Source: a virus (lineage: Duplodnaviria; Heunggongvirae; Uroviricota; Caudoviricetes). From it: 4,449 nucleotides of DNA. The notes beneath the pieces were generated by a model. It did no database searches, was not told where the DNA came from, and worked only from the letters and a program-made list of their open reading frames with translations. Made by a program: the position numbers and the translations under genes. The DNA lies in IMG/VR virus record IMGVR_UViG_2778261509_000009. One strand, written 5' to 3'. This document shows positions 456 through 3,491 of the stretch, piece by piece. How positions within the stretch are numbered: the stretch's first letter is position 1; each line of letters opens with the position of its first letter.

Positions 456-523
456 ATTTTCCTCTTTACATTACATTACCTTTATGTTTTTCCAAAATAA
501 ATCAAAGTCATATGGCGTATCAA

Positions 524-561
524 GTTTTTTTGATTATTTATGAGCTCATACTCAAAAAAAC
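524..561. repeat. imperfect palindrome: 12-bp perfect palindrome TATGAGCTCATA (539-550) flanked by inverted arms GTTTTTTTGA (524-533) and TCAAAAAAAC (552-561)
   Basis: Read directly from the sequence. The outer arms are exact reverse complements but are asymmetrically spaced around the central palindrome. Lies in the AT-rich intergenic region about 70-105 bp upstream (minus-strand sense) of the Walker-A ORF start. Confidence 0.5.
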
Positions 562-770
562 TAAATCTAATTTATCTTACGTTAACTAAAGATTTCATAT
601 GTTAGTATGCTCAAGCAATGCTACTGCTGGAGTCTGATGATATCCGTTATACACTAATTGCCACGCACACAAGCGACATCAGTTCATGGCACAAAGCAGA
701 CAACCACGCTACCTCTACCCTATGCCATGAAAATGTCAATTTACATCTTAACTAATGCACTTTAATCTCG

Positions 771-1193
771 TCACTTAAATAGATACCGAACATTTCCCTG
801 ATAAAACGACAATATGCGCTGCATAACTTCGCTCTTCCGGCACTCGCGACAGATTATGTTTAGACGACTGTCGTAGCGACGTATTTCTCCATCAGGTAGT
901 GACCAGATAAGGTCCGGATCAACCACAGCGGGTTTCTTCACCTTCGCCCTAGAGAGTTTTTTGCGGGCATTTTGCCAGTCCTTTCGTGCCTGTTCAGACG
1001 GGAATAACCCGTAGCCGGAGTTGTATACATAACCACTGGCAACCAGCTCTCTGGCAAGAATGCTCATCAGATATCTTGTCGCACCTGTTTTAGCTTCCAA
1101 CTGTCGTAATGTCTCGCGACCGCTCTGGCGCACAAGTTCGACCACCTGCTCTTTAATTTTTTCCCGCTCTTCCTGTGTAAAAACTTTTGCCAC
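771..1193 (-). CDS. hypothetical 140-aa protein immediately downstream of the replication initiator; N-terminus looks like a winged-helix/HTH-type DNA-binding region (by-eye impression only)
   Basis: ORF from the track. GTG start at 1193 preceded by a near-consensus SD (minus strand reads TAAGGAGGACTT-GTG). Begins 40 nt after the initiator stop, same strand. N-terminal stretch TQEEREKIKEQVVELVRQSGRETLRQLEAKTGATRYLMSILARELVASGYV has the helix-turn-helix look of small regulators. No specific family recognised. Confidence 0.75.
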   Translation of the reverse strand: MAKVFTQEEREKIKEQVVELVRQSGRETLRQLEAKTGATRYLMSILARELVASGYVYNSGYGLFPSEQARKDWQNARKKLSRAKVKKPAVVDPDLIWSLPDGEIRRYDSRLNIICRECRKSEVMQRILSFYQGNVRYLFK

Positions 1194-1233
1194 AAGTCCT
1201 CCTTAAAATTACCTCATGACCTGAAATCAACAC

Positions 1234-2199
1234 TTATCCCCTGAAACCAGGCGGAATTTCTGTATCCGGTTCAGAAATATGATTCACACAACGCTGTACA
1301 GGTGAACGTCCCAAGCGGATGACCAGTTCGTCCCATTTTTCGCGGAGTTTTGACGGGCTCATGATGTTTTTTACCCAGAATGGATCTCGCTGTACCCGAC
1401 CAAACATTTCGCAAATTTGTCTGTGGCTTCTGCCATCCAGCATCCGCATTGTGCGCACGTCATTGGCCCAGGCTGTCCAGTTAGGCTCTTTTGGTCGCAT
1501 GATCTCTCCATCGTCGCTGGCAGCCTGTTCGTAAAGGTTCACGATCCGCCCCCAAATCCACTGCGCACACGCCAAATCCTCCCTGCTACCCCACTGGCGT
1601 TTTTTCGCACTAAACACAACCGCGTCGGGGTTCCGGGTTAAAAAATCCTGTTCAGCGGTCTGCGGGTCCGGTTGCGAAGCTTCCGGACGAAAAGTGTTTT
1701 TATTCTCTGTAGTAATCTCTGTTGTATTCTCTGTAAGATCATCAGGCCATTTTGACCCGATGACATTGGGTCGTTTTGAACCAATGGAGCGTTTCATTTT
1801 GACCTCTTCCATCGTGTCATTTTGACCTGATGGAGCGGCGCATTTTGAACCGATGGATTCGTTCAATTTGCCACCATCTAAAAGCTCGCTCCCATAGTTG
1901 ATCGTGTAGAAATTGGTCATATCGCGCTTTGATTTATTGAGCTTTTCACAACGCAAAAGCCCCAGCGTTTTCAGACTTGCAAACGCGCGCTTTAACGTTG
2001 ACTCTGACCAGAATGGGAACTGTTCCAGCCATTGTTCCGTTGTGTTGTAAATCCAGCGAACACCATCACATTCCATGCCGGAATTGGTATCTCTCAACCA
2101 GTAATGCAACTGCTGCAACACAATGGCTTCATTTAAGCCAATCTTCATCGCAAGCTGTGTGTTTATAACCAGTGGGCGTTCAGCAAAAAGAAGGCTCAT
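1234..2199 (-). CDS. phage replication initiator (functional analogue of lambda O; iteron-binding origin-recognition protein)
   Basis: Long minus-strand ORF. The origin-like repeat array lies inside the coding sequence and encodes a repetitive low-complexity linker (SIGSK..SIGSK..VIGSK, TENTTEITTEN), as in lambda where ori sits within O. N-terminal region (AMKIGLNEAIVLQQLHYWL...WSESTLKRAFASLKTLGLL) resembles winged-helix origin-binding domains. Gene order Cro, cII-position gene, initiator matches lambdoid early operons. The track ORF begins at a TTG (2253); I place the start at the first ATG (2199, MSLLFAERPLV...), which overlaps the upstream gene by 20 nt. The start remains uncertain. Confidence 0.8.
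   Translation of the reverse strand: MSLLFAERPLVINTQLAMKIGLNEAIVLQQLHYWLRDTNSGMECDGVRWIYNTTEQWLEQFPFWSESTLKRAFASLKTLGLLRCEKLNKSKRDMTNFYTINYGSELLDGGKLNESIGSKCAAPSGQNDTMEEVKMKRSIGSKRPNVIGSKWPDDLTENTTEITTENKNTFRPEASQPDPQTAEQDFLTRNPDAVVFSAKKRQWGSREDLACAQWIWGRIVNLYEQAASDDGEIMRPKEPNWTAWANDVRTMRMLDGRSHRQICEMFGRVQRDPFWVKNIMSPSKLREKWDELVIRLGRSPVQRCVNHISEPDTEIPPGFRG
1701..1736. repeat. three tandem 12-bp repeats (TATTCTCTGTAG / TAATCTCTGTTG / TATTCTCTGTAA); candidate AT-rich unwinding element of the origin
   Basis: Read directly. Period is exactly 12 bp. Immediately adjacent to the iteron array on the side that is downstream in the initiator gene's orientation, matching the lambda ori layout of iterons followed by an AT-rich region. 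Confidence 0.6.
1748..1863. repeat. iteron array: five direct repeats of ~23 bp with core CATTTTGA(C/A)C(N)GATGGA; candidate origin of replication
   Basis: Copies begin at 1748, 1772, 1795, 1818 and 1841 (spacings 24, 23, 23, 23). A degenerate sixth copy (CAATTTGCCACC) begins at 1864. The third copy diverges in its 3' half. Located inside the replication initiator coding sequence. Confidence 0.8.
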
Positions 2200-2701
2200 A
2201 ATTCCATCCAGCTTTTTGTTGGTATTGCAGTCGATACGCAAGTTTGAAAGCAATTGCTTTTTCTATAAGTTCGTCAGTTTCACGATCCACTACGGCAGGA
2301 TCAGCAAAAAGCAGTCCGGACTCCACCACATCGCCATATTCTTTGTTTAACCCGGCGATCATGTACGTGATGCTTTTTCCGTCACTAATTTCACGATACA
2401 ACCTGAAATCATTAATCCGGATAGCCTCCATAATTGCAGGCACTAGCGCCGTGAACTTTTCACGCTTATCCCTAGTGTCGATAGCCTTCCAGCGTTCGAA
2501 TATCTTCACTCGATTAACGCCAAGCGCTCGCTGATCAACCGCGCCACCTTCATCTGTGACACGCTGAACATCGATGTTCGGGCGCTCTTTCAAAGCCCAG
2601 AATGCTTCAGTGATTAATATCGTCGCCTGCTCCTGTGTCATTCCTGGTCGACATATCCAGGCATCCAGAGCCTCACGAGCCTGTTCAGGAGTGATTTTCA
2701 T
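2180..2701 (-). CDS. hypothetical early regulatory protein in the cII position (173 aa); possibly YdaT/CII-like, not verified
   Basis: ORF from the track with an ATG start at 2701. The start lies inside the last codons of the Cro-like gene (17-nt overlap; minus strand reads AATGAAAATCACTCCTGA), and the 3' end overlaps the initiator start by 20 nt, consistent with a tightly coupled operon. Functional assignment is by synteny only. Confidence 0.75.
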   Translation of the reverse strand: MKITPEQAREALDAWICRPGMTQEQATILITEAFWALKERPNIDVQRVTDEGGAVDQRALGVNRVKIFERWKAIDTRDKREKFTALVPAIMEAIRINDFRLYREISDGKSITYMIAGLNKEYGDVVESGLLFADPAVVDRETDELIEKAIAFKLAYRLQYQQKAGWNYEPSFC

Positions 2702-2912
2702 TGTTCAACCGCCCCGCCCGCTTCGTCTTACGATATTCGTCATAAACTTTGGGATCATACTGAAGCTCCCCGCCAGATGCCTCCTGTAGACGCATCGCGC
2801 GACCTTCAGGAACCAGTATCCCCCAAGCAGCAACACTTGCCAGTCTCACTCCTGCGGCATTGGCAAGCTTTGTTTTGCTGCCAAAAAAAGTAATTGCGTC
2901 AGCTTTAAGCAT
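2685..2912 (-). CDS. dicC: Cro-like small DNA-binding protein, DicC-type (75 aa)
   Basis: Translation MLKADAITFFGSKTKLANAAGVRLASVAAW...GRAMRLQEASGGELQYDPKVYDEYRKTKRAGRLNNENHS matches my recollection of E. coli Qin DicC and the YdaS/Cro-like family. Divergent from the DicA-like repressor. The track ORF starts at a TTG (2915); the adjacent ATG at 2912 has a consensus SD (minus strand reads AATAGGAGGCTTTG-ATG). Confidence 0.88.
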   Translation of the reverse strand: MLKADAITFFGSKTKLANAAGVRLASVAAWGILVPEGRAMRLQEASGGELQYDPKVYDEYRKTKRAGRLNNENHS

Positions 2913-2925
2913 CAAAGCCTCCTAT

Positions 2926-2943
2926 TGTTAGACTTTTCTAACA
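2926..2943. promoter_or_regulatory. operator O1: palindrome TGTTAGA-cttt-TCTAACA in the dicC/dicA divergent intergenic region
   Basis: Exact 7-bp inverted arms with a 4-bp spacer, read directly. The same palindrome recurs at 3437-3454. Lies immediately upstream of the dicC-like SD and overlaps the candidate -10 of the minus-strand promoter. Confidence 0.65.
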
Positions 2944-2970
2944 TTATTGTGCGCGGGATACCTAAGTCAA
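2943..2970 (-). promoter_or_regulatory. candidate sigma70 promoter for the Cro-like/replication operon: -35 TTGACT (plus-strand 2965-2970), 16-bp spacer, -10 AATAAT (plus-strand 2943-2948)
   Basis: Hexamers read on the minus strand. Predicted transcription start near 2936, giving a leader of about 24 nt to the dicC-like ATG. Operator O1 overlaps the -10 and start site. Not experimentally supported. Confidence 0.4.
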
Positions 2971-2992
2971 GAAAAATTAGAATTACCTAACT

Positions 2993-3400
2993 ATGGATAC
3001 AAGAACCCTAGGCCAGCGAGTTCTGGCGCGACGAAAAGAATTACGCTTAACACAACGAGAAGCTGCGCGCCTCGCTGGGGTTGCTCACGTCACAATTTCA
3101 CAATGGGAAAGAGACGAAACCCAGCCAGTCGGAAAACGATTGTTTGCTTTAGCGGATGCTCTGAAGTGCTCACCTACATGGCTAATGTTTGGTGACGAAG
3201 ACAAGGCACCAGTGCCGGCACAAGAACTTCATGTGGAAACAGAGCTAACTCCCAACCACAAAGAATTGATCGAATTATTCGATGCTCTTCCATCTTCCGA
3301 GCAGGAAGCCTTGCTGTCTGAAATGCGCGCAAGAGTAGAAAACTTCAACAAACTCTTCGAAGAAATGCTTAAAGCGCGTAAAAATAAATCAATAAAATAA
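2993..3400 (+). CDS. dicA: XRE-family HTH repressor, DicA-like (135 aa); prophage immunity repressor
   Basis: ATG start. Classic HTH region LTQREAARLAGVAHVTISQWERDE. Overall sequence (...GKRLFALADALKCSPTWLMFGDEDK...LIELFDALPSSEQEALLSEMRARVENFNKLFEEMLKARK) matches my recollection of E. coli DicA in length and motifs. Divergently arranged with the Cro-like gene. Confidence 0.92.
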   Translation: MDTRTLGQRVLARRKELRLTQREAARLAGVAHVTISQWERDETQPVGKRLFALADALKCSPTWLMFGDEDKAPVPAQELHVETELTPNHKELIELFDALPSSEQEALLSEMRARVENFNKLFEEMLKARKNKSIK

Positions 3401-3432: not shown

Positions 3433-3458
3433 TTTTTGTTAGACTAATCTAACAAAAA
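3433..3458. promoter_or_regulatory. operator O2: perfect 11-bp inverted repeat TTTTTGTTAGA-ctaa-TCTAACAAAAA (core TGTTAGA-N4-TCTAACA at 3437-3454)
   Basis: Read directly; arms are exact reverse complements. Same core and spacer length as O1. Sits between the repressor stop and the ydfA-like gene. Confidence 0.7.
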
Positions 3459-3462
3459 ACAC

Positions 3463-3491
3463 TTGCCTCTTATGTTAGGTTATTCTAAATT
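3463..3491 (+). promoter_or_regulatory. candidate promoter of the rightward operon: -35 TTGCCT (3463-3468), 17-bp spacer, -10 TAAATT (3486-3491)
   Basis: Weak hexamers (each about 4/6 to consensus), but flanked by O2 upstream and overlapped by O3, the arrangement expected for a repressor-controlled promoter. Low confidence. Confidence 0.3.
3473..3490. promoter_or_regulatory. operator O3 (degenerate): TGTTAGg-ttat-TCTAAat
   Basis: Same 7-4-7 architecture as O1 and O2 with one mismatch in the left arm and two in the right arm. Centre lies 36 bp from the O2 centre. Confidence 0.5.

Follow-up and report, generated by a model that had tools for sequence, protein, structure and literature searches.

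Here we describe the 315-bp non-coding spacer at positions 456-770 of a 4,449-nucleotide stretch of Caudoviricetes DNA (IMG/VR record IMGVR_UViG_2778261509_000009; the whole stretch is referred to as the window), which belongs to an E. coli prophage of the Qin/Rac lambdoid type. The spacer separates a gene encoding a DUF977 (Ren-like) protein from the GTG start codon of a gene encoding a P-loop ATPase. With a probability that we put at roughly three in four, it is the upstream junction of a single-gene moron cassette housed in a fixed slot of Qin/Rac-type lambdoid prophages, a slot that lies between the DUF977 gene and the hokD/sok locus. When aligned with related genomes, the spacer consists of two unrelated pieces that are joined at about position 676-692. 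The replication-side piece (~676-770) would be phage backbone, namely a border element that is read through from the replication operon and yields an RNA with a conserved hairpin, and different cargo segments would join at a 9-6-9 palindrome that ends this element. The other piece (456 to ~675) would have arrived with the AT-rich foreign ATPase gene, bringing a promoter, a leader of ~30 nt, a Shine-Dalgarno sequence and the GTG start. Cargo would be swapped by recombination within or beside the border element and in the conserved flank on the hokD side, and the hairpin may act in transcript 3'-end formation or insulation. In substance this is an ordinary moron junction, as an earlier sequence-only reading of this DNA had proposed.

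The two halves of the spacer are linked to different modules. The entire 315 bp is found in 40 of 5426 complete E. coli genomes, in all of them at 99% identity or more, and its AT-rich segment (456 to ~686) occurs solely alongside the ATPase gene (about 40 of the same 5426 genomes). The right-hand ~84 bp only (about 687-770) matches 2344 E. coli genomes at 80-92% identity, in which it comes after DUF977, and phage records show the same two-way split of matches. Breakpoints were mapped in 77 IMG/VR loci that possess a close DUF977 relative and lack the ATPase. Similarity to the window ends at 676-692 in 64 of these loci and at 786-788, inside the end of DUF977, in another 11, and the DNA past this point groups into at least 14 clusters without relation to one another; examples of cargo behind DUF977 are QueH in EC958, two hypothetical genes in EC25 and one hypothetical gene in mEp460_ev081. 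On the hokD side, the similarity of cargo variants resumes at 2779-2792 of locus L003, which harbors an intact copy of the cassette. This point is 24 nt past the ATPase stop codon, at the upstream edge of hokD/sok, and the junction is common to L002 and L005 within 14 bp. Examined as a candidate moron, the locus therefore displays a replacement polymorphism in which DUF977 with its tail and the hokD flank are conserved and the cargo differs. The module boundary or moron insertion that had been suggested for this spacer is thus supported by alignment with related prophages. Its position has to be moved, however: the break had been placed near 770, and the spacer is indeed AT-rich up to there, but homology breaks off inside it, at 676-692. 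Its right-hand 84 bp are part of the replication-side module and not of the insertion.

Running the GC profile bore out the compositional break. The GC content of the spacer is 33.7% (31.2% for 456-686 and 40.5% for 687-770) versus 47.4% for positions 771-3400, which ranks it 115th lowest among 4135 windows of 315 bp, and a two-segment likelihood model places the change point at ~815 (36.6% versus 47.7% GC) with a log-likelihood ratio of 13.2 that was reached by none of 500 shuffles. In the intact copy in L003, the whole cassette has 34.4% GC and its flanks 47-50%; GC at third codon positions is 30% in the ATPase gene versus 44-52% in neighboring genes. The absence of a credible open reading frame (ORF) was likewise confirmed, as those of at least 30 amino acids in the gap reach only 31-45 amino acids and the longest (618-755, plus strand) spans the junction of two separately inherited segments and so cannot be a conserved gene.

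The cassette measures ~1.75 kb, made up of a 1488-bp gene and ~220-235 bp of upstream DNA, and near-identical versions of it (at least 99% identity) are present in 41-43 E. coli genomes. Strains with an intact cassette include ATCC 43896, NCTC11476 and 504838. The intact ATPase comprises 495 amino acids and is annotated in L001 and L003 as a P-loop ATPase of the Sll1717 family; the L003 protein matches NCBIfam NF047389 with an E-value of 3.8e-74 and 250 bits (cutoff 75). Judging by its relatives, the family is foreign to E. coli. Proteins with 63-70% amino acid identity are encoded by a Methylophaga metagenome-assembled genome (MAG), a Bathymodiolus symbiont and a Bdellovibrionaceae MAG, and those with 89-92% identity occur as cargo, after ogr in two P2-like contigs (L014 and L015) and after gpU in another myovirus (L016). 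Two distant relatives, L006 and L008, have the gene on its own with a gap of 180-250 bp before it, a third contig being partial, and the spacer shares nothing with the upstream regions of the distant relatives (63-70% amino acid identity) beyond chance 9-12-mers. With respect to function, the ATPase belongs to PHROG 13260, which is annotated as of unknown function, has no Pfam domain and found no relative in a PDB sequence search, and PADLOC returned a weak partial match to the candidate system PDC-M28C (E 4e-5, 20.6 bits, residues 212-304). That phages repeatedly carry this gene as cargo, in slots of three kinds, would fit a role in defence or exclusion, which is guilt by association. In the open-access literature, the border motif and 'Sll1717' appear in no paper and we found nothing useful on DUF977.

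Upstream of the ATPase gene, a consensus scan predicts a sigma-70 promoter whose -10 hexamer ends 38 nt ahead of the start codon. Its equivalents are TTGATT-18-TAACTT in L014 and L015 and TTGCCA-18-TATCTT in L016, in each of which the -10 ends 38 nt from the start, and the bases around the promoter are mostly diverged in all three. Window positions 607-462 align with the L014 upstream region with a score of 47 versus 26.2 ± 3.8 by chance. In L014 and L015, the ogr gene upstream of the cassette ends in a strong intrinsic terminator (GCCCCGCAATTGCGGGGCTTTTT), so these copies of the cassette cannot depend on read-through. Together, these observations provide good comparative evidence for a dedicated promoter, followed by a leader of ~30 nt and the Shine-Dalgarno sequence AGAGGA, that would drive ATPase expression. 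The dedicated promoter suggested by the sequence-only reading is therefore upheld as far as a promoter-like site with a geometry kept in diverged relatives goes, and it stands as a prediction from sequence and phylogenetic footprinting.

The replication-side piece is an element of ~90 nt. Its start is only a few nt away from the stop codon of DUF977, and the cargo breakpoints lie at its 3' end. An nhmmer profile built from 27 variants of this border element matches window positions 766-684 with an E-value of 2.6e-14. Its main structure, hairpin A, has together with its surroundings a folding energy of -44.9 kcal/mol (z = -5.4). Among 16 DUF977-linked variants, the 10 core pairs are kept at 95.6% and include two compensatory pairs, and across 35 diverse variants 83.9% of cells are paired and four pairs show double changes, with G-C, G.U and A-U alternating. 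Covariation in hairpin A amounts to 0.246 versus 0.190 ± 0.013 for shuffles that ignore relatedness (0 of 500 reach it, and it is above all slid controls), which lends moderate support to a conserved hairpin; the many G.U pairs suggest that it is RNA that folds, in the sense orientation of the gene upstream. Rfam gave no match at the canonical element copies in L016, L105, L002 and L164. In the group of 11 loci with the junction at 786-788 (L060-L074), the border element is absent and an overlapping downstream gene is present instead (GGAGGTGATGCTGTGAGT...), indicating that DUF977 does not require the element.

The border element is not confined to the DUF977 slot. A scan of IMG/VR with GCTYTGTGCCAANAGNGGAC identified at least 120 loci, at least 61 of which have no DUF977 gene upstream. 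Elsewhere, the full ~90-nt element is found in P2-like phages between gene G (tail-fibre assembly) and the sheath gene FI that comes next, and also behind gpU, behind a P2-type portal gene and behind a Q-antiterminator-like gene, the last assigned by eye. The window's own prophage type possesses a second, diverged copy ~7 kb downstream (L022 6761-6850), located between paralogous small lipoprotein-like ORFs of 142 and 131 amino acids and ahead of holin and lysozyme genes. Six loci contain two full copies in inverted orientation around 1.1-5.6 kb of cargo, and in one of them, L016, the inverted pair (2706-2800 and 4607-4697), which follows myovirus gpU, brackets an 89%-identical homologue of the ATPase. 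The idea that such pairs are transposon ends finds no support, as 5-bp direct repeats flank only two of the six (ATAAC in L164, CTAAA in L221); the ATAAC repeat in L164 sits in a self-palindromic flank. In the DUF977 slot, nhmmer found no inverted second copy: L001, L003 and L005 yield one match each, and L004 a second, partial match in direct orientation. The E. coli K-12 Rac region contains no copy of the element.

The 9-6-9 palindrome overlaps the 3' arm of hairpin A. In most prophages cargo-specific DNA starts a few bases past it. Furthermore, L107 (6164-7403) corresponds to L002 (3992-4015) with a 1.2-kb, one-gene cassette added, and this cassette is bounded by two 24-bp palindromes, GTCCGCTYTGTGCMAAGAGCGGAC, so that the alignments on either side share 28 bp, which fall on this sequence. 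The cassette has thus been inserted or deleted precisely at the palindrome, direct evidence that the palindrome serves as a joint; relative to mEp460_ev081, EC25/L004 likewise carries an extra cassette. An RNA helix formed by the palindrome itself (hairpin B) was rejected, covariation being absent from both the 16- and the 35-variant sets. It is conceivable, though we consider it improbable, that the border element and its palindrome form a dedicated cassette-exchange site that operates across unrelated temperate phages (lambdoid phages after DUF977 and Q-like genes; P2-like phages after G, U and portal genes), moves defence-type cargo such as the ATPase by site-specific or palindrome-stimulated recombination and insulates that cargo through its hairpin RNA. 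Two further observations concern this motif. In L014 and L015 (about 2735-2800), the cassette upstream region starts with GTGTCATGAGCGGCGGTG, which resembles the loop and 3' arm of the border palindrome and may be the scar of a transfer from an element-bearing slot. In L126, L145, L146 and L207 (for example L146 6766-6835), related palindromes (ATGTCCGCTTTACCCCCRAAAGCGGACAT, with 6-7-nt loops) stand in tandem, 45-50 bp apart, and resemble a repetitive extragenic palindrome (REP)-like repeat family related to the border palindrome.

Several results weigh against the interpretation of the spacer as a moron junction with an element-marked border. Among related prophages we found no empty slot, meaning that what would be called an insertion is really a replacement. 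The predicted promoter matches the consensus at 9 of 12 positions with an 18-bp spacer, and a second promoter-like match on the minus strand at 637-664 (GTGGCA-16-TATCAT) lies ~180 nt upstream of the ATPase start; at the position aligned to this second match, L014 has a partly similar TATCAA. A scan of 456-770 for intrinsic terminators found none; hairpin A is followed by AAGAGCGGAC-type sequence and no U-tract. At the other end of the cassette, the E. coli copies have no terminator either: only 24 nt separate the ATPase stop codon from the junction in L003 and they contain no hairpin with a T-run, which makes the autonomy of the transcription unit incomplete. A hairpin with a T-run does follow the ATPase homologue in L015 and L016, in the latter as a terminator-like hairpin at about 4495-4530. 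As for the border element, most of its other variants have ordinary thermodynamic z-scores, the 9-6-9 palindrome shows no covariation, as stated above, and RNAalifold applied to all 35 variants returned no consensus structure, the last because the right-hand copies are without hairpin A.

Three other explanations of the spacer were weighed. The palindrome with A7/T7 arms to which the sequence-only reading had drawn attention is real, with a score of 12 versus 6.5 ± 1.1 in 300 dinucleotide shuffles, none of which reached 12. It adjoins the predicted -35. Counted from the predicted promoter it would span roughly -36 to -75, a zone used by class I activators and by repressors that bind upstream. 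It could therefore be an operator at which a dimeric regulator, such as a DicA-type prophage repressor, CRP or another host factor, switches the ATPase promoter, in which case the spacer would be a dedicated regulatory region; a 5' region of ~220 bp is long for a bare promoter, and positions 600-617 within it resemble the prophage operator with two mismatches. Against this, the symmetry has been lost in relatives with 89-92% identity, as L014 and L015 keep only an A-rich tract beside the -35 (CAAGAAAAACC) and L016 is without most of the palindrome, which indicates that this symmetry is not under long-term selection. In addition, the palindrome is unlike a DicA-type operator, L014 has no counterpart of the 600-617 site, a CRP-like half-site match is weak (7 of 10), and the E. 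coli copies, being at least 99% identical, yield no footprint. We thus regard a switchable operator as unlikely, and prefer to see the palindrome as a probable UP-element-like or curved, H-NS-prone upstream tract rather than a conserved operator. As a terminator it was rejected, since whichever strand is read, the T-run comes before the stem and the A-run after.

Alternatively, the spacer could be functionless, made up of neutral AT-rich foreign DNA and decayed remnants of illegitimate recombination, with the ATPase expressed by read-through from the replication operon. The cassette and DUF977 are co-oriented, the border element is no obvious terminator, which makes read-through plausible, and the 3' arm of the junction palindrome is decayed; moreover, RNA of positions 440-690 folds no better than shuffles (z = -0.66) and Rfam found no match in the window at E ≤1. 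This account does poorly with the comparative data, namely a -35, -10, 18-bp spacing and 38-nt distance kept in three diverged relatives from different phage slots, the significant alignment of 607-462 with L014, two distant relatives that stand alone behind 180-250 bp gaps, and the terminator that excludes read-through in L014 and L015, and we give it little credence. Lower still is our estimate for a two-component cassette, with the ATPase and a partner encoded in the spacer that would be a small RNA (antitoxin-like, for instance) or a small protein. A long non-coding stretch would have room for one, the nearby hokD/sok shows that the slot region tolerates RNA genes, and the start of a short ORF (ATG-AAA) is common to the window, L014 and L015. 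Yet the window and L014 have short ORFs of unequal length and unlike sequence, L016 has none, and the sense strand of the cassette-specific part holds no ORF of at least 30 amino acids. The RNA-gene version was dropped on the folding result just given, with the empty Rfam search pointing the same way. We accordingly return to the moron junction as the reading that we favor.

The ~90-nt border element is already on record in P2-like phages as an annotated repeat. A blastn search of phage records with a gene-G-type copy retrieved AJ512677, AJ512679, AJ512680 and AJ512682 ('Bacteriophage P2-ECxx proviral Z-region'), in which the matching 113 bp are annotated as 'left inverted repeat'. In the same records, a 91-bp 'right inverted repeat' lies beyond 'putative lysogenic conversion' ORFs that have their own annotated -35 and -10. 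Direct alignment of window positions 764 to ~678 with AJ512680 3-115 gave a score of 39 versus 16.8 ± 3.1, with a maximum of 34 in 500 shuffles. We take these records to originate from the 2004 work of Nilsson, Karlsson and Haggard-Ljungquist (Mol Biol Evol 21:1). The P2 Z-region (the Z/fun slot, between G and FI) is organized like the window in that the last backbone gene is followed, right behind its stop codon, by a repeat and then by variable 'lysogenic conversion' or cargo genes with their own promoters, and it has the same hairpin and GTCCGCTYT-GTGCCA-ARAGCGGAC palindrome as the window's element family. The two differ in that the repeat follows gene G in P2 and DUF977 of a lambdoid replication module in the window, and in that the P2 region has an inverted right copy, whereas in the window's slot nhmmer finds none at the hokD side and the 3' arm of the palindrome is decayed.

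Other known arrangements resemble the locus in part. Morons are extra transcription units between backbone genes, which Hendrix and colleagues reportedly defined for HK97 and HK022. As in lambdoid morons, the window has a single extra gene between backbone units, with 34% versus 47-50% GC, a promoter-like site and alternative genes in relatives; a terminator of their own is one criterion for morons, which the E. coli copies here are without, and no relative with an empty slot was seen. In phage lambda, the ren-tR2-nin region has a Ren-like gene at the end of the replication module, then a non-coding element with structure, and beyond that genes that are dispensable. This arrangement can be likened to that of the window, where DUF977, assigned to the PHROG 'Ren-like exclusion protein', occupies the end of the replication module in the manner of lambda ren; the window's element differs in having no U-tract and no recognizable intrinsic terminator. 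The hotspots of P2 and P4 are fixed slots between conserved phage genes that contain interchangeable cargo (Rousset et al. 2022, PMC9122126). The window's ATPase family is likewise cargo in P2-like phages, but it is no established defence gene. The text of that article does not contain the words inverted repeat, palindrome, hairpin or terminator, and speculates on recombination at cos ends (PMC9122126). Taken by themselves, the compositional break and promoter are routine and add one more prophage-hotspot moron, here inactivated by an insertion sequence (IS). What is added is the link between the repeat of the P2 Z-region, annotated two decades ago, and a lambdoid slot: lambdoid prophages of E. 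coli in their thousands have the element at the end of the replication module, and in several further phage modules it brackets cargo, with cassette junctions exactly at the palindrome. The border element thereby offers a concrete and testable way into the exchange of defence and conversion genes among prophage hotspots, a question left open by Rousset et al. (2022, PMC9122126).

Table 1. Coordinates of the spacer, its parts and the surrounding genes in the window.
Feature	Position	Strand	Details
Gap (spacer)	456-770		315 bp, between DUF977 end at 771 and GTG at 455
Slot-border element	676-770	minus	~90 nt; 3' end decayed here; homologous to P2-like Z-region 'left inverted repeat'
Hairpin A	683-731	minus	Stem with G.U pairs; arms 718-731 and 683-696
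9-6-9 palindrome remnant	678-701		Canonical form GTCCGCTTT-GTGCCA-ARAGCGGAC; 3' arm degenerate here, TGAACTGAT at 678-686
Cassette-specific 5' non-coding region of ATPase	456-675	minus	~31% GC; complete only in ~40 genomes with ATPase at the slot
A7/T7-armed palindrome (AGTTTTTTTGATTAT ... ATACTCAAAAAAACT)	523-562		Arms 523-537 and 548-562; 15-nt arms, 14/15 complementary, 10-nt loop
Inner perfect palindrome TATGAGCTCATA	539-550		Within the 523-562 palindrome
Predicted sigma-70 promoter	494-523	minus	-35 TTGATA 523-518; 18-bp spacer; -10 TATTTT 499-494; consensus scan
Shine-Dalgarno AGAGGA	460-465	minus	4 nt before GTG 455; read from sequence; AAAGAG there in L014 and L015
Sll1717-family P-loop ATPase, N-terminal 101 codons	150-455	minus	Pseudogene here; start GTG 455; Walker A GRKGTGKT; cut by IS
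IS3-family element end (ISEc48-like)	1 to about 152		Interrupts the ATPase gene
DUF977 (LygF, Ren-like)	771-1193	minus	Last conserved gene ahead of cargo slot; Pfam PF06163, E 9e-29; PHROG 142 'Ren-like exclusion protein'
O-like replication protein	1234-2253	minus	
YdaT-family protein	2180-2701	minus	
Cro/DicC-like regulator	2685-2915	minus	
cI/DicA-like repressor	2993-3400	plus	

The remaining features of the window concern the state of the ATPase gene and its surroundings. In 1594 genomes, ISEc48/IS3-family transposase elements share 98-100% identity with positions 1-160, and in all ATPase-bearing genomes the match to the window begins only at position 152. The IS insertion at the ATPase does not recur in any of the 5426 complete genomes of E. 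coli. Because the frame is cut after codon 101 by this IS3-family element, the cassette is a pseudogene in this genome, whatever its promoter does. In L002, Rfam identified both sok and DicF. The operator look-alike at 600-617 in the spacer, which has no counterpart in L014, lies ~115 bp upstream of the predicted ATPase transcription start. Near the repressor gene, DicA-type operator palindromes (TGTTAG-N6-CTAACA) are found with two mismatches at 3473-3490 and as exact copies at 2926-2943 and 3437-3454.

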